From the NCBI GenBank assembly GCA_910586675.1, contig CAJUJO010000001.1:6377-70376 (forward strand): a stretch of DNA of 64,000 nt, read 5' to 3'. The position numbers were made by a program, and so were the translations under genes. Under the pieces are notes generated by a model. It did not search any database, was not told the DNA's origin, and worked only from the letters and a program-made list of their open reading frames with translations. Shown here in pieces: positions 21,893 to 32,054 of the stretch (position 1 is the stretch's first letter; the number at the start of each line of letters is the position of its first letter). The DNA comes from an uncultured Christensenellaceae bacterium. Its GTDB lineage: Bacteria > Bacillota > Clostridia > Christensenellales > Borkfalkiaceae.

Positions 21893-23092
21893 ATGAATGA
21901 GAGGCTTGCGCGGAGAATCCGCACCATTTCGCCCTCGCTTACGCTCGCCGTGAGCGCCAAGGCGAAGGCGATGAAAGCCGCAGGCGAGGAAGTCATCAAC
22001 TTCGGCGTGGGGGAACCGGATTTCAACACGCCCGCGCATATCGTAGAGGCGGCGGAGCACGCACTCGAAGCGGGGCACACAAAGTACACGCCCTCTTCCG
22101 GGCTTCTCGAACTGCGCCGCGCCATCTGCGACAAGTTCAAACGCGACAATAATCTGGAATACGAAAGCTCGCAGATCATCGTGAGCAGCGGCGCCAAGCA
22201 CTCCATTTTCAACGTGTGCTTCGCGCTCCTCGACGAGGGCGACGAGGTCATTATTCCCGCGCCCTATTGGCTTACCTATCCCGAAGTGGTAAAGGTGTGC
22301 GGCGGCGTGCCCGTCGTCGTCAAGGCGAAAAAATCCAACGGTTTCAAAATTACGCCCGAGCAGCTCAAAGAGGCCATCACGCCCAAGACCAAGCTGTTCA
22401 TCTTCAATTCGCCGAGCAATCCCACGGGCGCCGTGTATTCGGAAGAGGAAGTGCGCGCGCTTGCGAAGGTGTGCGAGGAAGCGGACATCTTTGTTCTCTC
22501 CGACGAAATTTACGAAAAGCTCGTCTACGGGCAGGTCAAGCCCTTTTCCATGGCGGCTTGCTCGGATAAAATGAAGGAGCTCACCGTAACCGTTAACGGC
22601 GTTTCCAAGACGTACGCCATGACGGGTTGGCGAATCGGCTATCTCGCCGCCCCTAAGGACATTGCCAAGGCGATCGACTCCTTCCAGAGCCATGCGACGA
22701 GCAACGCCAATTCCATCGCGCAGTATGCGACGATCAAGGCGCTCAACTCGCCCGAAGCGGCGGTTGAAGAGATGGTCGCTATCTTCGCAAAGCGCAGGGA
22801 AGCCATGTTAAAACGCATTGCGGAAATGCCCGACGTGTCGTGCGTCGTGCCCGACGGCGCGTTTTACGCCATGCTCGTGGTGCGGAGCGCCTACGGCAAG
22901 CGTTTCGGAAGCAAGCTGATCGACGGCTCCGTGAGCTTTGCCGACTGTCTGCTCGACGCGGCGAAGGTTGCCGTCGTGCCCGGTATATCCTTCGGCGCGG
23001 ACGAATGCATCCGCATTTCCTATTCCCTTTCCATGAGCGATATGCTCGAAGGATTGGATCGCATCGACGCATTTATGCGCAGCCTGAAATAA
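21893..23092 (+). CDS. PLP-dependent aspartate/aromatic aminotransferase (class I)
   Basis: 399 aa with the SKTYAMTGWRIGY PLP-lysine motif and INFGVGEPDF near the N-terminus. Confidence 0.9.
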   Translation: MNERLARRIRTISPSLTLAVSAKAKAMKAAGEEVINFGVGEPDFNTPAHIVEAAEHALEAGHTKYTPSSGLLELRRAICDKFKRDNNLEYESSQIIVSSGAKHSIFNVCFALLDEGDEVIIPAPYWLTYPEVVKVCGGVPVVVKAKKSNGFKITPEQLKEAITPKTKLFIFNSPSNPTGAVYSEEEVRALAKVCEEADIFVLSDEIYEKLVYGQVKPFSMAACSDKMKELTVTVNGVSKTYAMTGWRIGYLAAPKDIAKAIDSFQSHATSNANSIAQYATIKALNSPEAAVEEMVAIFAKRREAMLKRIAEMPDVSCVVPDGAFYAMLVVRSAYGKRFGSKLIDGSVSFADCLLDAAKVAVVPGISFGADECIRISYSLSMSDMLEGLDRIDAFMRSLK

Positions 23093-23118
23093 ATTTTCCG
23101 CGAATTTTCGTAAAACTC

Positions 23119-23147
23119 TTGAAATCTACACAAAAACTTGATAGAAT
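23119..23147 (+). promoter_or_regulatory. sigma-70-like promoter for the small P-loop gene
   Basis: TTGAAA (23119-23124), 17 nt, TAGAAT (23142-23147). Confidence 0.5.
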
Positions 23148-23190
23148 ATAAATACAATAAAGAAGCGCCGCAAGGCGTCAGGAGGACAGC

Positions 23191-23598
23191 ATGATCAAAA
23201 TTATTTGCGGCCCCAAGGGCAGCGGAAAAACCAAGAAGATAATCGACGCGGCGAACGCGGCGGTGGAAACGGCGAAGGGACACCTCATCTTCGTTACCGA
23301 TACCAAGAGATATATGTACGACTTAAAGCGCGAGATCCGTTTTATCGACGTTACCGATTACGCCGTCGCGGGCGAGGAGGCGCTGTGCGGCTTCGTGAAG
23401 GGCGCGATCGCGGGCGGATACGACAACGAATACGTGTTCGTGGACGGCGCGGCGCGCATCGCGGGAAAGAACGTAAAGGATATGTCGGCGTTCTATTACA
23501 TGCTCGACAGAGTTTCCCTTCTCCGCAATCTGCAAATTTACGTAACGTGCAGCTGTGCGGAAGAGGAGCTTCCCGAGTTCGCAAAGAAGTACCTTTGA
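23191..23598 (+). CDS. minimal P-loop NTPase of unknown function
   Basis: 135 aa with Walker A GPKGSGKT at residues 7-14 and a Walker-B-like YVFVDG. It has its own promoter and a weak downstream hairpin. Confidence 0.6.
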   Translation: MIKIICGPKGSGKTKKIIDAANAAVETAKGHLIFVTDTKRYMYDLKREIRFIDVTDYAVAGEEALCGFVKGAIAGGYDNEYVFVDGAARIAGKNVKDMSAFYYMLDRVSLLRNLQIYVTCSCAEEELPEFAKKYL

Positions 23599-23724
23599 TC
23601 GGCGGGAAATTATTTTTGAAAATTTGACCTTTCCGAACCGTCCCTTTTTTGCAAAGGGGCGTTTTCGGATATTTACGGCTTACGGCGCTTTCGCTCATTT
23701 TCGGCGGGCGTGGAAGGAGAAATT

Positions 23725-25215
23725 ATGTATTTTGTCAGCACAAGGGGGAACGAGAGAGTTACGGGCGCGCAGGCGATCGTGCAGGGGCTTGCGAAGGACG
23801 GCGGTCTTTTCGTGCCCGAATTTTTTCCCGCCGTCAAGCAGGACGAGCTTGCGCTCATGCTGGAAATGGACTACCCCGAGCGCGCCGCGCACATTTTGCA
23901 TAAATATCTGGACGAGTACGACAAAGAAGAGCTTCTTTCCGCGCTGAAAAAGGCGTACGCGCAATTTGAAGGGAACGACCCCGCGCCGCTCGTCAAGGTG
24001 GAAAACGGCATGTTTATGCTGGAACTCTTCCACGGCCCCACGTGCGCGTTCAAAGACATGGCGCTCACCGTTCTGCCCTACCTACTGCGCAAGGGGTGCG
24101 ACATCTGCGGAATCAAGGAAGAGATTCTCGTCCTCGTCGCGACGAGCGGCGATACGGGTAAAGCGGCGCTCGAAGGCTTTAAGGACGCGGCGGGCGTCAA
24201 AATCATGGCCTTTTATCCCGAGGACGGCGTTTCCAAAATGCAGAAATTGCAGATGTGCACGCAGGAGGGCGATAACGTTAACGTCGTCGCCGTCAAGGGT
24301 AATTTCGACGACTGTCAGACGGCGGTCAAGCGTATTTTCCATTCGGATCGGTGTAAAGAGGAATTGAAGGAGAAAAACGTGCTTCTCTCCTCGGCGAACT
24401 CCATTAACTTCGGGCGGCTTGCGCCCCAAATCGCCTATTACTTTTCCGCCTATCTCGATTTGGTTTCTTCCGAGCAGATTGCATTGGGAGACAAAGTAGA
24501 TTTTACCGTGCCCACCGGCAACTTCGGCAATATCCTCGCGGCGTACTACGCAAAGCAGATGGGGCTTCCCGTCGGAACGCTCGTTTGCGCTTCCAACAAA
24601 AACAACGTGCTTACCGACTTTATTCAGAGCGGCACGTACGATTGCAAGCGCTCCTTCTATAAGACCATGTCGCCGTCCATGGACATTCTGGTTTCCTCCA
24701 ACCTCGAACGGCTCATTTACGAAATATCGGGGCGCGATGCGGCAATCACCAAGGAGAGAATGGAAAAACTCTCGTCGTCGGGCAGGTACGAAATTACGGC
24801 GGCGGAAGCGCAAAAAATACGCGCTTCCTTCTTTGCGGGCTGCACGAGCGAGGACGACACGGTGGAGTGCATGTACGAATTCTTCACCGAGTACGGTTAT
24901 CCCATGGACACGCATACGGGCGTCGCCATGAACGTCGCCCAAAGGTACGAGGAAAAGCGCGCGGAAGAAAAATGGGAAGAGCGCCCCATGGTTGTAGTTT
25001 CCACCGCAAGCCCGTATAAGTTCCCGCAGGACGTATTGTATGCGCTTACGGGGAACGACGTAAAAGACAGCTTCAAGGGCATAAAGCGCATCAATCTTTT
25101 AACGGCGATGAAGGTGCCCGAGAACTTGAAGGCGCTTCGCTATAAGCCCGTGCGGTTCAAACAGACGGCGCATGCGGACAAGCTGTATCAGGAAGTTCTT
25201 AAATTTATCGGTTAA
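23725..25215 (+). CDS. thrC: threonine synthase (long form)
   Basis: MYFVSTRG start after a GGAGA RBS, with the FHGPTCAFKDMAL PLP-lysine motif. The ORF-track start at 23710 is a GTG five codons upstream. Confidence 0.9.
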   Translation: MYFVSTRGNERVTGAQAIVQGLAKDGGLFVPEFFPAVKQDELALMLEMDYPERAAHILHKYLDEYDKEELLSALKKAYAQFEGNDPAPLVKVENGMFMLELFHGPTCAFKDMALTVLPYLLRKGCDICGIKEEILVLVATSGDTGKAALEGFKDAAGVKIMAFYPEDGVSKMQKLQMCTQEGDNVNVVAVKGNFDDCQTAVKRIFHSDRCKEELKEKNVLLSSANSINFGRLAPQIAYYFSAYLDLVSSEQIALGDKVDFTVPTGNFGNILAAYYAKQMGLPVGTLVCASNKNNVLTDFIQSGTYDCKRSFYKTMSPSMDILVSSNLERLIYEISGRDAAITKERMEKLSSSGRYEITAAEAQKIRASFFAGCTSEDDTVECMYEFFTEYGYPMDTHTGVAMNVAQRYEEKRAEEKWEERPMVVVSTASPYKFPQDVLYALTGNDVKDSFKGIKRINLLTAMKVPENLKALRYKPVRFKQTAHADKLYQEVLKFIG

Positions 25216-25228
25216 AAAATGTGCAGGC

Positions 25229-25255
25229 GGACTTTCTTCGGAAAGTCCTTTTTTT
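25229..25255 (+). terminator. rho-independent terminator after thrC
   Basis: GGACTTTC-TTCG-GAAAGTCC followed by TTTTTTT. Confidence 0.75.
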
Positions 25256-25318
25256 GTGCAAACGGGGTGAAATTTGCTTTAATTTCCCATGAAGCGCGCA
25301 ATACTTTTCGTTTCCGCG

Positions 25319-25347
25319 TTGCAATTTGGAAAATAATGTGGTATAAT
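25319..25347 (+). promoter_or_regulatory. sigma-70-like promoter for trpS
   Basis: TTGCAA (25319-25324), 17 nt, TATAAT (25342-25347). The leader to the ATG is only about 43 nt. Confidence 0.6.
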
Positions 25348-25390
25348 TTGGAATGATACTGATCAATTGAAAGGCTTAGGTTAGAGGATT

Positions 25391-26386
25391 ATGGAAAATA
25401 AAGTGCTCTATTCGGCGGTTCAGCCGAGCGGAAATCTCACCATAGGCAATTATGCGGGAGCCATCCGCAACTGGGTGAGGATGCAGTCGGAGTTCGACTG
25501 TTTTTTCGCCATTGCCGACATGCACGCCATAACCGTCCGTCAGGAGCCCGCTCTTTTGCGCCGCAGAACGGCGGAGCTCGCGGCACTCTATCTCGCCTGC
25601 GGAATAGATCCCGAGCGTTGCACGCTCTACGTGCAGTCGCAGGTCTCCGCGCATGCCGAGCTCGCCTGGGCGCTCAATTGCATCACTTACGTCGGCGAAA
25701 TGGAGCGCATGACGCAGTTCAAGGATAAATCCCGCAAACATGCCGACAATATCAATATGGGGCTCATGGACTATCCCGTGCTCATGGCGGCGGATATTCT
25801 GTTGTATCAGCCCCACTACGTGCCCGTCGGCGCCGATCAGAAGCAGCATGTGGAGATCACGCGGGACATCGCGATCCGCTTCAATAACCGCTACGGGGAA
25901 ACCTTCCGCGTGCCCGAACCTTACATCATGAAAGAAGGCGCGAGCATCAAGTCCTTGCAGGAACCCGCGAAAAAGATGAGCAAGTCGGATGAAAACGCAA
26001 ACGCGTCCGTTTACCTTACGGACGACAAAGATACGATCATACGCAAGTTCAAGCGCGCCGTAACGGACAGCGACAACGAGATTCGCGTGTCTCCCGAAAA
26101 GGCGGGTATTTCCAATCTTCTGAATATCTACGCCTCTTTTGCAGGCTGTTCGTTGGCGGAGGCGGAAAATACCTTCCGCGGCAAGGGTTACGGCGATTTC
26201 AAGCTCGCCGTCGGCGAAACGGTTGCCGACGCGCTCGCACCCGTACAGGAGGAACAGCGGCGTTTGCTTTCCGATAAAGAATATTTGAACTCCGTCTTGC
26301 AGGCGGGCGCGGAGCGCGCGTTCAAAGCGTCGCGCAAAACGCTCTCCAAAGTGTACCGCAAAATCGGGTTTTATCGGGGGGAATGA
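25391..26386 (+). CDS. trpS: tryptophan--tRNA ligase
   Basis: 331 aa with the class I signatures PSGNLTIGNY (HIGH-like) and KMSKS. Confidence 0.95.
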   Translation: MENKVLYSAVQPSGNLTIGNYAGAIRNWVRMQSEFDCFFAIADMHAITVRQEPALLRRRTAELAALYLACGIDPERCTLYVQSQVSAHAELAWALNCITYVGEMERMTQFKDKSRKHADNINMGLMDYPVLMAADILLYQPHYVPVGADQKQHVEITRDIAIRFNNRYGETFRVPEPYIMKEGASIKSLQEPAKKMSKSDENANASVYLTDDKDTIIRKFKRAVTDSDNEIRVSPEKAGISNLLNIYASFAGCSLAEAENTFRGKGYGDFKLAVGETVADALAPVQEEQRRLLSDKEYLNSVLQAGAERAFKASRKTLSKVYRKIGFYRGE

Positions 26387-26387
26387 T

Positions 26388-27254
26388 TTGTTCGGATACG
26401 TTCGTTACGACCTCCCAAATTTATTCGTCAAAGATCTGATGCTCTACAAAGCTATGTACTGCGGGCTGTGCAAGGGCATAGCGGCTTCCTGCGGGCAGGC
26501 GGCGCGCGTCGGGCTTACCTATGACGTAACCTTTCTTTCCGTTCTTCTGCATAATATGACGGGAACGGACGTAAAGGTAGAAAAGCAGAACTGCTTCGAG
26601 CACCGCTTGAAAAAGCGCCCGATCGCTCTGGTCGACAGTCTGACGGAGGAGCTCGGCGCGCTCAATACCGTGCTCTGCTACTTCAAGTTGACCGACGACG
26701 TGCAGGACGGCGGAAAGGGCAGGGGCAGGCGTGTGTGGTTCAAAAAGGGCTATAAACGCGCAAAAAAGAAGTACCCGGAGCTCGTCTCCCTCATAGAAAA
26801 TTACATGGCGCGGCAGGCGGAAACGGAGAAGGCAAAGACGGCTTCGCCCGACATAGCGGCGGATCCTTCCGCCTGTCTTATGCGCGAGCTTTCCGCATAC
26901 TTTCTCAAAGAAAAGGCGGGGGAAGGCTCCTCTCAGCTCTTTTACGCCATCGGCAAGTGGGTGTACCTCATCGACGCGCTCGACGATTACGATAAGGACG
27001 TAAAAAAGAAACAGTACAATCCCTTTGTATTGAGCTACGGCGCAAAGTCGCGCGCGGAGCTTATGCAGGCGAGCGGACAGGAAATCGCTTTTTTGTTCGA
27101 CACCATGTTCTTCGACATGCGCGAAGGGCTGGGAAAAATAAAGTTTTACTTCAACCGCGATTTGACGGATAACGTAATTTTACGCGGTTTGCCCGCCGAG
27201 ACGGCGCGTGTCATGAAGGGCGAAAAGCCCAAAAAGATGAGCGAAAAAATCTGA
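26388..27254 (+). CDS. conserved hypothetical protein (DUF5685-like as I recall it) with an N-terminal Cys cluster and two Asp-rich motifs
   Basis: 288 aa. TTG start 1 nt after the trpS stop, with a GGGGGG SD inside the trpS 3' end. MFGYVRYDLP..YCGLCKGIAASCG; DDVQD at 103-107; DALDDYDKD at 196-204. Confidence 0.6.
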   Translation: MFGYVRYDLPNLFVKDLMLYKAMYCGLCKGIAASCGQAARVGLTYDVTFLSVLLHNMTGTDVKVEKQNCFEHRLKKRPIALVDSLTEELGALNTVLCYFKLTDDVQDGGKGRGRRVWFKKGYKRAKKKYPELVSLIENYMARQAETEKAKTASPDIAADPSACLMRELSAYFLKEKAGEGSSQLFYAIGKWVYLIDALDDYDKDVKKKQYNPFVLSYGAKSRAELMQASGQEIAFLFDTMFFDMREGLGKIKFYFNRDLTDNVILRGLPAETARVMKGEKPKKMSEKI

Positions 27255-27261
27255 GGGAAGT

Positions 27262-27636
27262 ATGTTTCACTGCGACGAAGATTCCCAAGAATACGAACGG
27301 TTTCGGTCAATTTGGGAAATACTGAATTCCGACCTTCCGAGCGATTCCGACTTGGACGAAGCGTGGAAACGTCTGGAAGCAATGAAGGAAAGGGACGCCG
27401 AATGGCACTATGCTAGCGCGGCGGTCTGCTTCCGCAAATGCTGGTATCTCGAATGCAAAAGGCACTTAAAAAAGGCGATGAGGCTGAACCCGCAGGCGGG
27501 GAAGTATAAGGAAGCGTTCGACGGGCTCACGGCAATGGCGGATGAAGCCGCCAAGGGCAACAAGCGAATGCCTTCCCGGGAGTTCGACGGCTGCGCGGAG
27601 ACCTGTCTGGAAGGTTGCTGCACGTCGTGCTGTTGA
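27262..27636 (+). CDS. hypothetical protein with a cysteine-string C-terminus (paralogous module shared with the next gene)
   Basis: 124 aa with a GAGGGA RBS. Ends GCAETCLEGCCTSCC (6 Cys in 15 aa). Shares the ER[DN]AEWHY...KY+.A.D.L module with the 27658 ORF. Confidence 0.6.
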   Translation: MFHCDEDSQEYERFRSIWEILNSDLPSDSDLDEAWKRLEAMKERDAEWHYASAAVCFRKCWYLECKRHLKKAMRLNPQAGKYKEAFDGLTAMADEAAKGNKRMPSREFDGCAETCLEGCCTSCC

Positions 27637-27657
27637 TAAAATATAGACGAGGAAATC

Positions 27658-28266
27658 ATGAATAAAGAATATTACGAACTTTTACAGGTAAACGAGGATT
27701 GTACCGACGAGGAAATCGAAGCGAGCTACAAAGCGCTCAAAGAGAAGTACAATCAGGAAAAGTGGCAGGACGGCGAAGCGGGCATGAATGCAGCGAAGAT
27801 GCTGGGCAAGCTCGACGCCGCGTATGCCGAAATCATGGCGGACCGCAAGGAAAAAAAGCAGAACACGAGCGGGGCTTCCGCCTTCGACGAGGTGTCCGAG
27901 CTCATCAAGAAGGGGGATATTTCGGGCGCGCAGGCGCGGCTGGATTCCTTCAACGAGCGGAACGCCGAATGGCATTATCTGCAATCGGTCGTGTTCTATA
28001 AAAAGAACTGGATGAACGAGAGCAAGAAACAGCTGGAAATCGCCATTCAGATGGACGCGACGAATACCAAATACCGCGACGCCTACGATAAGTTGAAAGC
28101 CCGCGCCGACTATCAACAGCAGACGGGCGGCGCGCCCAACACCAACCCCAACGTCAATACGGGCGACGAACAGATGGGCGGGAACTGGTGCGCGAACTGC
28201 GCGAGCTTCTGCTATACCTGGATGTGCGTCAACTGCCTGTTTAACCTCTGCTGCAACTGTCGGTAA
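27658..28266 (+). CDS. J-like domain protein (HPD replaced by NQE) with a cysteine-string C-terminus
   Basis: 202 aa. YYELLQVNEDCTDEEIEASYKALKEKYNQEKW follows the J-domain helix II pattern but lacks HPD. Ends WCANCASFCYTWMCVNCLFNLCCNCR (8 Cys in 26 aa). Confidence 0.7.
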   Translation: MNKEYYELLQVNEDCTDEEIEASYKALKEKYNQEKWQDGEAGMNAAKMLGKLDAAYAEIMADRKEKKQNTSGASAFDEVSELIKKGDISGAQARLDSFNERNAEWHYLQSVVFYKKNWMNESKKQLEIAIQMDATNTKYRDAYDKLKARADYQQQTGGAPNTNPNVNTGDEQMGGNWCANCASFCYTWMCVNCLFNLCCNCR

Positions 28267-28796
28267 TGAAAAAACCGTCCAAATCGTTTGAAATAGCGCT
28301 TTCGGCAATCGCCTGTGCGGTCGCGGCGGCGTTCTTAATGCTCGGCTCGCTCAATCCGTTTTTGCTTGCGACGGGCTATCTCGTCGGCGCGTTCGCCCTC
28401 ATGACGCCTCTCTCCAAGGGGTTCGTGTGGGGGAGCGCGCTCGCCTTTTTGGGCGCGTGCTTGCTTGCGCTCCCTTTGAGTTTGTGGAAAATCGTGCCCT
28501 TCGCCGCATTTTTCGGAATTCACCCGATCGTCAACTATCTGCAAAAAAAATACGTAAAAAAAAGTCTTTTCAATTGGCTCGTTTTCGCCGCGAAAGCCGT
28601 CTGGTTCGATTGCGCCATGCTCCTTTCCTGGTACGTTCTCACTTCCATGGCGGGAATGACCTTTCCCGATTGGATCACGGAATTTCTCTATCTCGTTATC
28701 TTTGCGGGAGGTACGCTCTTTTTCGTTGCATACGATTATATGATAATACTCTGTCAGAGGTCTGTTGACCTTGCGGTACGCAGAATACGGAGGTAA
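28266..28796 (+). CDS. five-TM integral membrane protein of unknown function
   Basis: 176 aa. Its ATG overlaps the TAA of the J-like gene by 1 nt, and its stop lies 2 nt before the next ATG. Confidence 0.65.
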   Translation: MKKPSKSFEIALSAIACAVAAAFLMLGSLNPFLLATGYLVGAFALMTPLSKGFVWGSALAFLGACLLALPLSLWKIVPFAAFFGIHPIVNYLQKKYVKKSLFNWLVFAAKAVWFDCAMLLSWYVLTSMAGMTFPDWITEFLYLVIFAGGTLFFVAYDYMIILCQRSVDLAVRRIRR

Positions 28797-28798
28797 TC

Positions 28799-30184
28799 AT
28801 GGAAAAGAATGCGGAATTTACCGGCGTTTGCGAAGCGTTCGGCTCCAACGGCGAGGGGATCGTTAAAAGCGGCGGCTTCACGGTGTTCGTGCCGCAGCTC
28901 CTTCCCGGGGAGAAGGCGCGCGTCAAAGTGCTCAAAACAAAGGGAAATATCGCATATGGCAGGGCGGAGGAAATTTTTACGCCCGCCGAGGACAGGGTGC
29001 GCCCCAAGTGCGCCGTCTTTTCCCGCTGCGGCGGCTGTCAGCTGCAGCACTTGCGCTACCGCGCGCAGCTGAAATATAAGTCCGACCTCGTGCGCGACGC
29101 TCTGCGCAAAATCGGCGGTATTTCTTCGGAAGTGCCCCTCTGCGAGCGCAGCGACAGGGAATACGGTTACAGAAATAAGTTACAGCTCCCGATCGGGCGC
29201 TGTGCGGAGGGCAATGCCGTCGGGTTCTATGCCGAGCGCTCCCACCGCATCGTCAGAACGGAGGAATGCCCTATTCATCCCGCATGGGCGGAAAGGGTTA
29301 TCTCTGCCGTAACCCGTTTCATGGATACGTGCGGGTTGGACGGCTACGACGAACGCACGGGAGAAGGGCAGCTCCGCCATATCGTCGTGCGGGAGCTCAA
29401 AGGGAAATTTATCGTTACGCTCGTTACTGCCGCGCGCGAACTCAAAGGAATTGATTTCTTCGTCCATCTGTTGGACGAAATATTCCCCGAATATTCGCTG
29501 TATCTCAATCTTAACGCAAAGAATACCAACGTCGTGTTCGGCGAGGAATTTATCCTCGTCAAGGGGAAGGGCGTTTACGAGTGCACGGAAAACGGAATCA
29601 CGTTCGAGGCGGGGGCGAGCACGTTCGTGCAGGTCAACGAGGGCGTGCGCACGAAGCTCTACGAAAAAGCCGTTTCGTTCGCGGAAGAGGGGGAAACGGT
29701 GATCGACTGCTACGCGGGCGGCGGACTGATGACGGCGATGTTTGCTCGCAAGTGCGGGCGGGCGTTCGGGATCGAAGTTGTGCCCGAGGCGAGCGTCTGC
29801 GCCGACAGCCTAAAAGCAAAAAACGGACTTGCGGATAAAATGTTCAACGTCTGCGGAAAGGTGGAAGAAAAGCTTTCGCTAATCCTTTCCCGCGAGAAGG
29901 GCGCCGCCGTCGTGCTCGACCCGCCCCGTTCGGGCGCGGAGCGGAGCGTGCTCAAAGAGCTTATTGCGCAGAACGTTCGGAAGGTTATCATGATTTCCTG
30001 CAATCCCGCGACGCTCGCACGCGATTTGGGTATTTTAACGGGGAGTTTGAAGGAAACGGAGTCGGGCGAGCTCGTCAAATCGGAGACGGCGGACGGGAAC
30101 TATAAAATAGATTTTATTCAGCCGTACGACATGTTCCCGCAAACCAAGTGGGCGGAGACGTTGGTCGTGCTTACGCGCAAATAA
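28799..30184 (+). CDS. 23S rRNA (uracil-5)-methyltransferase, RumA/RlmD family (TRAM + Fe-S + SAM MTase)
   Basis: 461 aa with an N-terminal TRAM-like domain, the CGGCQLQH Cys cluster, the DCYAGGG SAM motif and a C-terminal nucleophile region (SCNPATLARD). Confidence 0.9.
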   Translation: MEKNAEFTGVCEAFGSNGEGIVKSGGFTVFVPQLLPGEKARVKVLKTKGNIAYGRAEEIFTPAEDRVRPKCAVFSRCGGCQLQHLRYRAQLKYKSDLVRDALRKIGGISSEVPLCERSDREYGYRNKLQLPIGRCAEGNAVGFYAERSHRIVRTEECPIHPAWAERVISAVTRFMDTCGLDGYDERTGEGQLRHIVVRELKGKFIVTLVTAARELKGIDFFVHLLDEIFPEYSLYLNLNAKNTNVVFGEEFILVKGKGVYECTENGITFEAGASTFVQVNEGVRTKLYEKAVSFAEEGETVIDCYAGGGLMTAMFARKCGRAFGIEVVPEASVCADSLKAKNGLADKMFNVCGKVEEKLSLILSREKGAAVVLDPPRSGAERSVLKELIAQNVRKVIMISCNPATLARDLGILTGSLKETESGELVKSETADGNYKIDFIQPYDMFPQTKWAETLVVLTRK

Positions 30185-30201
30185 CAAAAGGGGAGACGGT
30201 T

Positions 30202-30384
30202 ATGAAAAAATACACCTATTTAACGGAATCTGTTTCGTACGCGTTCAGCAAAAAGAATCTTGTTGCCAAGCTGGACGAGTTGATTGGAACAAGGGCGCAG
30301 GAGGGCTGGCGGCTCTTTCAGTTTGAGTTCAGCGATTGGATGGGCGCGTGCGTCGTCGTGTTTGAAAGGGAATTCGAGGAATAA
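30202..30384 (+). CDS. DUF4177-like small protein
   Basis: 60 aa from MKKYTYL.. (GGGGAGA RBS), with LDELIGTRAQEGWRLFQFE..VVVFEREF. The ORF-track start at 30148 is an extension overlapping the upstream gene. Confidence 0.6.
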   Translation: MKKYTYLTESVSYAFSKKNLVAKLDELIGTRAQEGWRLFQFEFSDWMGACVVVFEREFEE

Positions 30385-30397
30385 CGGAGAAAATATT

Positions 30398-30739
30398 ATG
30401 CCTTTTATCGATTGCAAAATAACAGAGCAGCTTTCCGATGACAAGAAAGAAATCGTAAAAACCAAGCTGGGACAAGCCGTGTCGCTGCTGCATAAGAGCG
30501 AAAACTAATTAATGGTCGGCTTGTGCGGCGGATACGATCTGTTCATGGCGGGCAAAAAATTACGGAAGGGCGCGTACGTTTCGGTCAGTCTGTACGGCAA
30601 TGCGACCTCCGCCGACTATGAAAATATGACGGGAGCCATATGCTCCATTCTGCGCGAAGAGCTATCCATACCCGCGGAGTCGGTGTACGTAACTTATCAC
30701 GGCATTGCCGACTGGGGTTGGAACGGCTCTAATTTCTGA
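30398..30739 (+). pseudogene. MIF/tautomerase-superfamily gene interrupted by an in-frame TAA at codon 37
   Basis: MPFIDCK.. (Pro-1) ..LHKSEN-TAA-LMVGL..VYVTYHGIADWGWNGSNF. Both halves are in the same frame (30398-30505 and 30509-30739). The stop at 30506-30508 aligns with the conserved Tyr of MIF (..PQYIAVHV..). Confidence 0.7.
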
Positions 30740-30845
30740 TAACAAAAACAAGTTTAACTTGTTGCGTTTCGGGCAATTCTTTTAACGATAGCGCGGCGTA
30801 AAATGCCGTGCCGAGAAAATAAAACGATTTGGAGAAAAACAGTTT

Positions 30846-32054
30846 ATGTACAACACGATACCGCTTGCCGAAGATTTATTTTACGTCGGCGCGAGTAATC
30901 GGCGGCTCTCTCTGTTCGAGGGCGCCTATCCCGTGCCGCGCGGCGTTTCCTATAATTCCTATTTGCTGATTGACGGAAAGACCGTTCTTTTCGACACCGC
31001 CGACGCTTCGGTGGAAGATTTGTTTTTGGAAAACGTCGAGCGCGCGCTCGGCGGGAGAGAACTCGACTATCTCGTCGTTCATCACGCCGAACCCGACCAT
31101 TCCGCATGCGTTTGCCGCATTCTGGAACGGTATCCTTCCGCCGTCGTGCTCGCTTCCGCAAAGGCGATTCAGATGTTGAAGAATTTCTGCGGGGAGCTGC
31201 CCGCGCGTTCTGTTGCCGTCAAAGAGGGGGATACGGTCAGCGTCGGAAAATATACGCTGCAATTTATTTCCGCGCCGATGATTCACTGGCCCGAGGTCAT
31301 GTTCACGTATATTCCCGAACGGGAAATGCTGTTTACCGCCGACGCGTTCGGCACGTTCGGCGCGCTCGATGGGAGCGTGTTTGCCGACGAGCTACATTTC
31401 GAGCGCGACTTTTTAAGCGAGGCGCGCAGGTATTATTTCAATATCGTGGGCAAGTACGGCGCGCAGGTGCAGAGCGCGCTCAAAAAGCTATCGGACAAAC
31501 CGCTTTCGCTCGTCTGTCCGCTGCACGGCCCCGTCTGGCGGAGCGGTTTTTCTTCCTATCTCGAAACATACGGGAAGTGGAGTGCTTATCTCCCCGAAGA
31601 GAGAGGCGTCGTGATTTTTTACGCTTCCGTTTACGGACATACGAAAAATGCGGCGGAGCTCCTCGCTTCCGCGCTCGCCGCGGAAGGCGTACGGGAAGTG
31701 CGAACATACGACGTTTCGGTTACGCACGGCTCGGAGATGCTCGCCGAAGCCTTTCGCTATTCTCACGCGGTGTTCGCTTCCGTAACGCTCAATGCGGGGA
31801 TATTCCCCGCCATGGAACAATTGATAAACGAATTGAAAGCGCATAATTTCCAAAATCGGAAATACGCTATCATTGAAAACGGTTCGTGGGCGCCGCAGGC
31901 AGGCGCTTTGATCGAAGCGCAGCTTTCCGCGCTGAAAAATACCGAAAAGGTCGGGGAAACGGTGAAAATGATTTCCGCTCTTTCGGAGCAGGGCGCGGCG
32001 GATTTGCGCGTTTTAGCAAAAAATATCGCGGACGATGTCTGCGGTAAAATATAG
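30846..32054 (+). CDS. fprA: flavodiiron protein (FprA family; MBL-like diiron + flavodoxin domains)
   Basis: 402 aa with the HHAEPDHS diiron motif and a C-terminal flavodoxin-like domain ([12 protein letters not shown]). Confidence 0.9.

Follow-up and report, generated by a model that had tools for sequence, protein, structure and literature searches.

Bacterial enzymes that prenylate the product of a neighbouring gene have been described for several peptide systems, in which trans-IDS-like proteins such as ComQ, PalQ and ChrPC modify peptides whose genes lie beside their own (PMC13290415; PMC5331326; bioRxiv 10.64898/2026.08.29.745113). The characterised trans-IDS-like peptide prenyltransferases are all directed at tryptophan and carry a glutamine just upstream of the second Asp-rich motif, SARM (PMC13290415). 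In eukaryotes, lipidation of the cysteine string, in the form of palmitoylation, directs the J-domain protein CSP/DNAJC5 to membranes (PMC4447612), while in plants OR stabilises phytoene synthase (PSY), and CDJ3-5 and DJA5/6 bind iron or Fe-S (PMC9407819). Here we examined a block of four genes that follows trpS in a 64,000-nucleotide stretch of DNA from an uncultured Christensenellaceae bacterium, the whole of which we refer to as the window. We conclude, with a probability of roughly 85%, that a trpS-...-rlmD operon in the window harbours a single copy of a gene triad with deep conservation in Clostridia, made up of a DUF5685 enzyme with an isoprenoid fold, an obligate J(-like)/TPR partner with a cysteine tail, and a small membrane protein, and that a 124-aa protein in the block is an additional copy of the partner that has no J-like domain. 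In the literature, we found no description of a module of DUF5685, this partner and the membrane protein.

All features of the locus lie on the forward strand. In a signal scan, a terminator-like hairpin 3' of thrC (25229-25248) and a sigma-70-like promoter 5' of trpS (25319-25347) together probably delimit the transcript on its 5' side (25229..25347). The promoter is followed by trpS, encoding a tryptophanyl-tRNA synthetase of 331 aa (25391..26386; Pfam tRNA-synt_1b, E = 9.2e-73), and then by the genes for the 288-aa DUF5685 protein, which starts with TTG (26388..27254; Pfam PF18937), the 124-aa J-less paralogue (27262..27636; BLASTP against the 202-aa protein), the 202-aa partner (27658..28266; J-like domain, TPR-like unit and Cys tail), the 176-aa polytopic membrane protein (28266..28796; AlphaFold (AF2) model), and an RlmD/TrmA-like TRAM-domain RNA (uracil-5)-methyltransferase (28799..30184; Pfam tRNA_U5-meth_tr and TRAM). 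The successive gaps from trpS through the methyltransferase gene are 1, 7, 21, -1 and 2 nt, the stop of the 202-aa frame and the start of the 176-aa frame overlap as TAATG, and a G-rich or GGAGG-like Shine-Dalgarno sequence lies upstream of four of the five starts. On re-check, the ORFs, gaps, TTG start, Cys motifs and missing HPD tripeptide were as the preliminary description of this DNA had given them. From the promoter onward, no intergenic terminator-like site was detected until 3' of the methyltransferase gene, and the terminator-like matches between trpS and the end of that gene all fall inside coding sequence. These signals are consistent with a single transcript running from trpS to the methyltransferase gene. 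No T-box or other Rfam RNA was found within 22000-31000, and the PADLOC anti-phage defence profiles gave 0 matches to the four proteins. The flanking thrC, trpS and rlmD-like genes are ordinary housekeeping genes.

We compared gene order across 80 genome loci and a set of diverse metagenome loci with 30-65% identity, for a total of 160 fetched loci plus spot checks. The partner gene was found 3' of DUF5685 in 79 of the 80 genome loci, either adjacent or, in five of them, after the J-less duplicate, and in every diverse metagenome locus with room for it (77/77). This linkage also holds in independently sampled lineages. As called, the two genes frequently share 17-38 nt. The gene for a homologue of the 176-aa protein comes third in 77/80 genome loci and is present in 52 of the 58 diverse loci with room, with five more recognised by position and topology. 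The link to trpS that had been noted in this one genome is much more widespread (trpS lies immediately 5' of DUF5685 in 46/80 genome loci, and likewise in 49 of 62 diverse metagenome loci with at least 900 nt upstream), but it is not universal. The methyltransferase gene, present in 75 of 80 Christensenellales-type loci but in only some one in three of the diverse loci, is a lineage-level neighbour outside the conserved core. The module originally proposed is therefore real, co-localised and tightly coupled, although its core comprises three genes rather than four. The preliminary description had named three outcomes that would speak against it, and we encountered none of them: the genes are co-localised in related genomes, the Cys-rich tails are conserved in orthologues of both proteins, and no characterised family accounts for the block in Pfam, NCBIfam or fold searches.

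The gene outside this core, that of the 124-aa protein, encodes one TPR-like unit (Pfam TPR_2, 18.4 bits, below the threshold of 27) and a Cys tail, GCAETCLEGCCTSCC (27589-27633). Its suspected paralogy with the 202-aa protein was borne out by BLASTP (E = 1e-17, 31% identity over 114 aa). A separate orthologue, in each case Cys-tailed, occurs in 5 of the 80 genome loci (L002, L003, L011, L016 and L036); the 124-aa gene is thus a duplicate of the partner gene that lacks the J-like part and has been kept only patchily.

The 288-aa protein matches DUF5685 (PF18937) in a Pfam search with 227.5 bits against a gathering cutoff of 26.7 (E = 2.7e-67), its residues 1-271 corresponding to model positions 1-269 of 272, and the family counts 3672 representatives at 50% identity (E <= 1e-3). 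We assessed conservation in 96 diverse homologues, each at most 65% identical to the window's protein. Because the N-terminal MFGY is conserved across this set (M1 and G3 invariant, Y4 in at least 90%), the TTG start is correct; some public gene calls misplace the start at M18, yielding 271 aa. Within the motif C25-x2-C28-x6-C35...C69 that had been pointed out, C25, C28 and C69 (26460-26462, 26469-26471 and 26592-26594) are each found in 96/96 homologues, whereas C35 is lineage-specific (16/96); H72 is kept in 51/96. The resulting Cys3 site, which the AF2 model places on helix 14-35 and hairpin loop 68-76, is presumed to be a metal site, where we infer the metal itself; judging from the topology, it may sit toward the end of the bundle opposite the Asp-rich cavity, and it could be purely structural.

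The two Asp-rich motifs recorded for this protein proved real and near-invariant. The first, D103-D104-V-Q-D107 (26694..26708), is FARM-like by conservation and helix position, lying at the C-terminal end of helix 84-106 (D103 in 96/96, D104 in 71/96 and D107 in 95/96 homologues). The second, D196-A-L-D199-D200-Y-D-K-D204 (26973..26999), is SARM-like by conservation and register and is found where helix 179-199 ends, following G189-K-W-V-Y193 (Y193, D196 and D200 in 96/96, D204 in 95/96 and D199 in 85/96). By sequence reading, its register is that of the canonical GxxFQxxDDxxD, with Gln replaced by Tyr193.

While these motifs had been seen, membership of the isoprenoid-synthase fold had been missed, and it is this fold that provides the main functional clue for the module. 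With the AF2 model of DUF5685 as query (pLDDT 96.3, pTM 0.93), the best 50 Foldseek matches in the PDB all fell into three groups of the isoprenoid-synthase superfamily (prenyltransferases, polyprenyl-PP synthases and terpene cyclases), and the prenyltransferase MoeN5 came first; the 50 have probabilities up to 1.00, TM-scores of 0.31-0.56 and E-values from 1.6e-3, no better than about 1e-3. The protein shares the all-alpha bundle of the superfamily, the DDxxD at the end of helix D, and a second Asp-rich motif in the variant form D196-A-x-D199-D200-x3-D204. The segment 'YFKLTDDVQDG' aligns residue-for-residue with the FARM 'YFLLHDDVIDG' of T. maritima octaprenyl-PP synthase 1vg3, at an E-value of 0.9 that is not significant alone, and when E. 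coli IspA was compared by hhalign, the top segment likewise fell on the FARM, at a non-significant probability of 0.1. Significant sequence or profile similarity to isoprenoid synthases was not found: phmmer against the PDB returned no significant match (best E = 0.91), the DUF5685 profile matched only designed helical repeats there, and other family members searched for prenyl synthase similarity gave no match. As part of the main reading, and with the same high confidence, the model points to DUF5685 as an unrecognised, very divergent branch of the isoprenoid synthases (trans-IDS/class I terpenoid) that retains the two Asp-rich Mg2+/diphosphate motifs and has gained an invariant Cys3 site. 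MoeN5 and the octaprenyl-, GGPP- and solanesyl-PP synthases are its best structural matches and carry DDxxD at the equivalent helix end, but identity is only about 10-17%, DUF5685 is shorter (288 aa), and GGKRxR, KT, the RRG after the FARM and GKxxxxD are unrecognisable in it, while it is further set apart from these enzymes by its Cys3 site and by having an obligate protein partner.

The 202-aa partner consists of a J-like region (residues 4-67), a linker, a TPR-like unit at about residues 100-150 ('ERNAEWHYLQ...') and a C-terminal cysteine string with 8 Cys in 26 residues (177-202; 28186-28263). Pfam DnaJ scores 25.5 bits on this protein, under the gathering score of 27.8, and the HPD position reads NQE. 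The absence of HPD, first noted for this single protein, holds across the window's lineage (HPD in 0 of 78 genome-set orthologues), and the tripeptide occurs in 7 of 77 diverse partners (absent in 70/77). The distant orthologues L081 and L086 have true J domains with HPD (Pfam DnaJ, 69.4 and 61.9 bits), and the J-like domain of the window is therefore homologous but degenerate; it is derived from, or sister to, the HPD-bearing J domains of other clades. The L081 protein additionally matches Pfam TPR_19 (29.1 bits against a threshold of 25), which indicates that partner proteins carry one or two predicted TPR-like hairpins.

The tail of the 202-aa protein, WCANCASFCYTWMCVNCLFNLCCNCR, is kept in orthologues, as is that of its 124-aa paralogue. 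Each of the 70 complete diverse partners carries 7-12 Cys within its last 32 residues. Among 148 unique partners, the last Cys lies 0 residues from the C-terminus in 34, 1 residue in 110 and 2 residues in 4, and the rest of the protein mostly has 0-1 Cys. The string spans 18-30 residues and is always at the extreme C-terminus. Its Cys spacing varies between clades while Cys richness is retained, which better fits a cysteine string or lipidation site than one fixed metal site. With a mean hydropathy of 0.7-1.2, under the level of a membrane helix, the tail alone is predicted to be too weakly hydrophobic to form one. Many tails carry acidic residues and GGD (CCCECMGGDLIPCC) as well as CxxC-type spacings, and no Trp is universally conserved in them.

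The third member of the triad had been predicted to span the membrane five times, and its AF2 model (pLDDT 91.7) indeed shows five long helices plus short ones. Neither the 176-aa protein nor 23 relatives matched Pfam-A or NCBIfam. Only G84, K110 and Y156 are invariant family-wide, and the family has no catalytic-looking conserved residues.

Taken as a whole, the triad may be a system by which bacteria lipidate a protein or tether it to the membrane. The suggestion that the tails are membrane-associated and acylated or metal-binding was raised as a hypothesis in the preliminary description and is kept as one here. Tentatively, and at odds well short of even, we propose an enzyme-substrate pair resembling ComQ/ComX, in which the Cys tail is prenylated and the partner docked at the membrane. 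DUF5685 would bind a prenyl diphosphate (e.g. FPP, from the undecaprenyl pathway) via Mg2+ on D103/D107 and D196/D200/D204 and would move prenyl groups onto the thiols of the partner's C-terminal cysteine string, the pair being encoded by overlapping genes as in ComQ/ComX. The lipidated tail would then tether the TPR/J scaffold, together with its short paralogue, to the membrane beside the 176-aa protein. In clades that keep HPD, the J domain, once tethered, could bring DnaK to the membrane, whereas in the window's lineage the loss of HPD would leave the J-like fold as an interaction module only. Prenylation on C-terminal CC or CXC motifs is found in Rab GTPases, and several enzymes use zinc sites of the Cys3 type to activate thiols for alkyl transfer. 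To our knowledge, no endogenous bacterial protein S-prenylation has been described.

ComQ/ComX, PalQ, the ChrPC P-domain and StheQ/StheX share with DUF5685 the all-alpha isoprenoid-synthase fold, the FARM and a modified second Asp-rich motif, and in both groups the enzyme gene immediately precedes an often overlapping partner gene whose product has reactive or reactive-looking residues at or near its C-terminus; a membrane-protein gene comes next, comP in comQXPA and that of the five-helix protein in the triad. In contrast, DUF5685 has no significant sequence similarity to these enzymes and differs from them in its extra Cys3 site and N-terminal MFGY; its partner is a 200-aa intracellular J/TPR protein rather than a secreted pheromone precursor, the conserved feature of that partner is Cys rather than Trp, and the triad is seemingly a very widespread housekeeping locus rather than a quorum-sensing one. 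Speaking directly against prenylation, Tyr193 is invariant (96/96) where peptide prenyltransferases have the Trp-recognising Gln, the acidic residues and GGD of the tails equally suit metal binding, the J and TPR units are classic chaperone modules that point to a chaperone over a substrate, and the 176-aa protein lacks conserved residues that look catalytic. The likeness to CSP/DNAJC5, a J-type domain and a dense Cys run in a small protein, is analogy only: CSP/DNAJC5 has a functional HPD, an internal string and DHHC acylation, while the partner has mostly lost HPD, bears a TPR unit and a strictly C-terminal string, and is linked to an enzyme with a prenyl-type fold. No homology between the two beyond the J fold was detected with Pfam and NCBIfam.

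The main rival, which we regard as rather unlikely in its turn, is that the tail binds Zn, iron or Fe-S and that the J/TPR protein serves DUF5685 specifically, as its holdase, assembly factor or redox partner, while DUF5685 would itself act on a small-molecule isoprenoid diphosphate. Such a role would suit the chaperone modules and the HPD-bearing distant orthologues (69.4 and 61.9 bits), the CxxC-type spacings with D/E in the tails, the anaerobic hosts, overlapping genes that could supply a stoichiometric complex, and the invariant Cys3 site, which may need metal or cluster insertion. It also has precedents in Cys-rich J or J-like proteins that bind iron or Fe-S, and in another such protein that regulates an isoprenoid-fold enzyme (PMC9407819). 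As in the triad, a Cys-rich DnaJ-related protein is dedicated to an isoprenoid-synthase-fold enzyme in OR-PSY, and CDJ3-5 and DJA5/6 hold iron or Fe-S on a Cys-rich domain, as suggested for the partner tail; however, OR lacks a J domain and combines a DnaJ zinc-finger with transmembrane helices, CDJ3-5 have ferredoxin domains, and none of these proteins shows a C-terminal cysteine string, a TPR unit or a sequence relationship to the partner. The explanation is further weakened by Cys spacing that differs among clades, and by a string ending 0-2 residues from the C-terminus, which a metal domain does not need. HPD is lost in 70/77 and 78/78 partners, which rules out chaperoning through Hsp70 as the general function, and the conserved membrane protein is left unexplained.

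It is improbable that the 176-aa protein is instead an ECF S-component importing a vitamin-like or isoprenoid-related compound, which DUF5685 would process with the partner as an accessory. Fold matches with TM > 0.5 are indeed confined to ECF S-components (RibU 3p5n_A, 5kbw and 5kc0), the best being 3p5n_A (probability 0.92, TM 0.53-0.55), and the family resembles them in its helical-bundle fold (TM about 0.53-0.56), its size of about 170-185 aa, its N-terminal 'KK..S.EIALSA.' helix and its Ala-rich helix 1. These last three features are typical of S-components, whose genes frequently adjoin salvage-enzyme genes. The Foldseek E-value is a weak 0.77, however, no family assignment came from Pfam or NCBIfam, and five long helices, not an unambiguous six, are seen in the model. 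Three invariant residues family-wide, with no conserved ligand-binding residues, make a poor case for a specific ligand pocket, ECF A/T genes were not noticed in an unsystematic look at the loci examined, and the cysteine tail is given no role.

We see equally little prospect that the partner is solely a DjlA/CSP-like co-chaperone recruiting DnaK to the membrane protein, with DUF5685 co-transcribed but functionally separate. Orthologues with HPD do exist, and near them lie a trigger-factor-like PPIase and genes judged Asp23-like by eye, which lend a flavour of proteostasis or envelope stress. Yet HPD is missing in the window's lineage and most clades, and the adjacency of DUF5685 and partner is near-invariant down to 30%-identity divergence while all other neighbours change, which argues for a direct functional tie between the two. 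That unrelated housekeeping genes share the operon by chance, as the ordinary nature of thrC, trpS and the rlmD-like gene might suggest, is hardly credible and effectively refuted by the neighbourhood data, since the triad is kept in the 160 fetched loci and the spot checks across otherwise differing contexts, with genes translationally coupled or overlapping.

Returning to the proposed prenylation, its boldest form is doubtful: the triad would be the first endogenous bacterial protein S-prenylation system, and DUF5685 a new Cys-directed branch of the isoprenoid synthases that multiply prenylates the string of a J/TPR protein. If true, this would give bacteria a 'bacterial cysteine-string protein' that is anchored by lipid and works with a membrane partner of its own, at housekeeping level and widespread in Clostridia.

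The 288-aa protein of the window proved to be a full-length member of DUF5685 (PF18937, 227.5 bits), a family with 3672 representatives at 50% identity in an exhaustive search (E ≤ 1e-3) and 2431 clusters at 90% identity in a word-indexed search. Across 96 representatives that were 26–65% identical to the window protein, C25, C28, C69, D103, E147, Y193, D196 and D200 were invariant, and D107, D204 and N211 were each retained in 95/96. The preliminary description had singled out a motif of C25, C28, C35 and C69; C25, C28 and C69 stand, as an invariant three-cysteine site that DUF5685 has gained, and C35 falls away (16/96). Conservation thus rules out C35, and likewise H72 (51/96), as metal ligands. 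A C-terminal cysteine (K-C-x-K-x-R-[LI]) was also rejected as a fourth ligand, since 24/96 representatives, about a quarter, have a Cys anywhere among their final 12 positions and the window protein has none there. About 15/96 C-termini carry a K-C-x-K-x-R-[LIF]-type motif, such as KCKKIRL or KCAKIRI; that of the window protein lacks it and terminates in KPKKMSEKI.

An AlphaFold2 model built on the 96-representative alignment (pLDDT 96.3, pTM 0.93) folds as an all-alpha bundle that has a small hairpin at its N-terminus. When this model was compared with the PDB using Foldseek, the top 50/50 matches belonged to the isoprenoid-synthase superfamily, among them the MoeN5 prenyltransferase, octaprenyl, solanesyl, GGPP and C45 synthases, terpene cyclases and a UbiA homologue, with probabilities up to 1.00, TM-scores of ~0.5 and E-values from 1.6e-3. 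DDVQD (103–107) is modelled at the C-terminal end of helix 84–106 and D196-A-L-D-D200-Y-D-K-D204 at the C-terminal end of helix 179–199, so that the Asp-rich motifs lie at the ends of two long helices, like FARM and SARM (the first and second Asp-rich motifs). The single sequence-level PDB match (E = 0.9, not significant on its own) paired LCYFKLTDDVQDGG of DUF5685 with the FARM of T. maritima octaprenyl-PP synthase, LHLYFLLHDDVIDGA. Against the PDB, the DUF5685 profile matched nothing but designed helical repeats, spurious hits of the kind that low-complexity helices give; alignment to E. coli IspA with hhalign did not reach significance, other DUF5685 family members yielded no prenyl-synthase similarity, and a motif search of ~1 Mb of fetched locus DNA found no canonical polyprenyl synthase for profile building. 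Sequence-level proof of homology to prenyl synthases therefore failed, with profile methods short of significance. The predicted structure marks DUF5685 out as a very divergent protein of the isoprenoid-synthase fold, one that appears to retain the diphosphate/Mg2+ machinery.

Within the window, trpS (25391–26386) is followed by DUF5685 (26388–27254, TTG start), a 124-aa ORF (27262–27636), a 202-aa ORF encoding the partner protein (27658–28266), a 176-aa membrane-protein ORF (28266–28796) and a TRAM/U5 RNA methyltransferase gene (28799–30184). From trpS to the methyltransferase gene the junctions measure 1, 7, 21, −1 and 2 nt in order, and the ORF map and sequence agree exactly with the ORFs and gaps of the preliminary description, whose choice of a TTG start is borne out by the family-wide invariant N-terminus MFGY. 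Several public gene calls start DUF5685 at Met18 (271 aa), missing the TTG and MFGY (26388–26441). Upstream, a terminator-like hairpin lies 3′ of thrC and a promoter-like site 5′ of trpS (25229–25347); the hairpin, GGACTTTCTTCGGAAAGTCC, is strong and followed by a T-run, and the promoter downstream of it is sigma-70-like (10/12) with an extended −10. These signals suggest that thrC and trpS, though conserved as neighbours, are probably transcribed separately in the window. Control of trpS by a T-box or other RNA was ruled out, as no Rfam match was found in 22000–31000 at E ≤ 0.1.

The 202-aa partner scores 25.5 bits against Pfam DnaJ, just below the 27.8 threshold, and indeed reads NQE in the position of the J-domain tripeptide HPD, as first noted. 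Its close homologues retain both the HPD-less motif E[ED][KR]W.DGEAG and the C-terminal cysteine string QMGGNWC..C...CYT.LCVNCLFNLCC.C[RH], a tail that matched no Pfam family. To sample the family, we used 80 genome loci of Gallimonas/Scatosoma-type Christensenellales (51–76% identity) and 80 far more diverse metagenome loci (30–65% identity to a distant DUF5685 member). The anticipated co-localization in relatives was found, with the partner present in 79/80 genome and 77/80 metagenome loci, the remaining three metagenome contigs ending within 170 nt. The cysteine tails are conserved in orthologues as well: full-length genome-locus partners each have 7–10 Cys in the last 32 residues (HPD in 0/78), and complete metagenome partners have 7–12 (70/70), HPD being kept in 7/77 of the metagenome set. 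In 148 unique partners, the last Cys lies 0 (34 partners), 1 (110) or 2 (4) residues from the C-terminus, the Cys-rich stretch spans 18–30 residues, and there are mostly 0–1 Cys outside the tail. Across the family, partners share a TPR-like unit and this cysteine string, strictly C-terminal. Spacing varies by clade, for instance CC-x2-C-x4-C-x2-CCC-x-C-x7-CC versus C-x2-C-x3-C-x4-C-x2-C-x5-CC-x-C. A tail-anchor transmembrane helix is ruled out by the mean Kyte-Doolittle hydropathy of the tails (0.7–1.2) and by the D, E, N and G within them.

Downstream of distant DUF5685 genes (28–33% identity), the same type of protein occurs wherever the DNA extends, often overlapping DUF5685 by 17–38 nt. 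Among the distant loci fetched singly, the partner carries a canonical J domain with HPD at L081–L083, L086 and L097 (Pfam scores of 69 bits at L081 and 62 bits at L086) and an HPD-less version at L087, L091, L092 and L094. The HPD-bearing partner of L097 (L097:2345–2812) lies 286 nt from DUF5685 and ends just past the TPR unit without a cysteine tail; it could be a frameshift, an assembly artefact or a genuine tail-less variant.

Neither the 176-aa membrane protein nor 23 of its relatives matched Pfam or NCBIfam. A profile built from its orthologues nonetheless picks up the third gene of distant loci (E = 1e-9 to 1e-55), and the gene occurs in 77/80 genome loci and, among diverse loci with at least 600 nt of room, in 52/58; five further diverse loci hold, in the same slot, a profile-undetected protein of equal size with six hydrophobic segments. 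Only G84, K110 and Y156 are invariant family-wide. Some orthologues in the genome loci have long Pro/acidic-rich C-terminal extensions (213–240 aa in total), and one has a ~100-aa loop insert rich in charged residues.

The 124-aa protein is, as had been proposed, a paralogue of the partner (BLASTP E = 1e-17), a J-less copy consisting of a TPR-like unit and the tail. Outside the window it is a separate gene in only 5/80 genome loci (L002, L003, L011, L016 and L036), and on this basis the four-gene module was rejected as the conserved unit. trpS lies directly 5′ of DUF5685 in 46/80 genome loci, and 5′ of it in 49 of the 62 diverse loci whose upstream DNA was long enough; in Scatosoma-type loci thrC, not trpS, directly precedes DUF5685. 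The trpS-linked lineages are very divergent (TrpRS 42–79% and DUF5685 ~30–65% identical). The trpS–DUF5685 gap is 1–6 nt, or the stop and start overlap, in the window, at the trpS-linked loci of the metagenome set (L101–L179) and at L087, L092 and L094. Coupling to trpS is a deep feature but not a universal one. All seven HPD-keeping metagenome loci (L142, L150, L153, L167, L169, L170 and L178) are without trpS, and throughout the minority HPD subfamily that they form with L081–L083, L086 and L097, trpS is never upstream. In its place L150, L167 and L178 have a gene that we take, judging the sequence by eye, to be Asp23-like; at L081–L083 it is a trigger-factor-like PPIase gene that directly adjoins the start of DUF5685. 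Across the window's taxonomic order, but not family-wide, the methyltransferase gene is found alongside. Since adjacency is constant for DUF5685, the partner and the membrane protein while other neighbours vary, these three constitute the invariant unit. A defence system was ruled out, no PADLOC profile having matched.

As to substrate and chemistry, we infer, with a probability of roughly 0.3, an enzyme–substrate pair in the style of ComQ/ComX, in which DUF5685 would prenylate the cysteine string of its partner. By this analogy all three components would be linked, and the prenylated string would lend membrane affinity to a tail that is not itself hydrophobic. Rab prenylation uses C-terminal CC or CXC ends. 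Trans-IDS-like enzymes prenylate peptides encoded by neighbouring genes (PMC13290415, PMC5331326, bioRxiv 10.64898/2026.08.29.745113), and every member of this group of peptide prenyltransferases characterised so far modifies Trp, via a Gln (PMC13290415). DUF5685 differs from these enzymes in having an invariant Tyr in place of the Gln. To our knowledge, protein S-prenylation has no precedent in bacteria, and it is for this reason and the Tyr substitution that our estimate is held so low.

The main rival, itself rather doubtful, would have the tail binding Zn, iron or Fe-S, with the J/TPR protein serving as a dedicated holdase, assembly or redox subunit of DUF5685. OR–phytoene synthase and the J proteins CDJ3–5 and DJA5/6, which carry iron or Fe-S (PMC9407819), provide precedents for it, but it does not account for why Cys spacing varies, why the tail sits strictly at the C-terminus or why there is a membrane protein. 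Uptake of the ECF type is a weaker model and seems improbable: ECF S-components are the only structural neighbours (TM > 0.5) of the AF2 model of the 176-aa protein (pLDDT 91.7, five long helices), but even the best fit, RibU, is a weak match (probability 0.92, E = 0.77). We give similarly little weight to a pure membrane co-chaperone. HPD is needed for classical Hsp70 activation, and because it is absent, the J-like domain of the partner in the window's lineage cannot be a classical Hsp70 activator. That the three genes are unrelated operon neighbours is effectively excluded.

DUF5685 is already catalogued by Pfam, its module occurs in many gut Clostridia, and the family is reportedly also found in C. 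difficile (PMC9403866). In the searchable full-text literature DUF5685 occurs in one paper, as a bare list mention, and PF18937 not at all, and the window's four proteins are nameless in public records; the literature searched contained no description of the DUF5685 fold assignment or three-cysteine site, of an obligate partner with a cysteine tail, of the third-gene family, of the split by presence of HPD or of the trpS linkage. The module is best classed, in our view, as a new isoprenoid-synthase superfamily branch that acts with an adjacent protein partner. DUF5685 now has a fold, both Asp-rich motifs, an invariant three-cysteine site, an obligate, translationally coupled cysteine-string partner and a membrane protein; what was an anonymous DUF thereby becomes a three-component system open to testing, and its deep linkage to trpS merits attention whether the tail is prenylated or binds metal. 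Were the tail a metal or Fe-S site, the module would represent a J-like assembly factor of a new kind, dedicated to an isoprenoid enzyme of anaerobes. S-prenylation, if true, would be categorically new for bacteria: a lipidated tail would mean that protein prenylation and cysteine-string membrane targeting reach bacteria, and would broaden peptide prenyltransferase chemistry from Trp to Cys.
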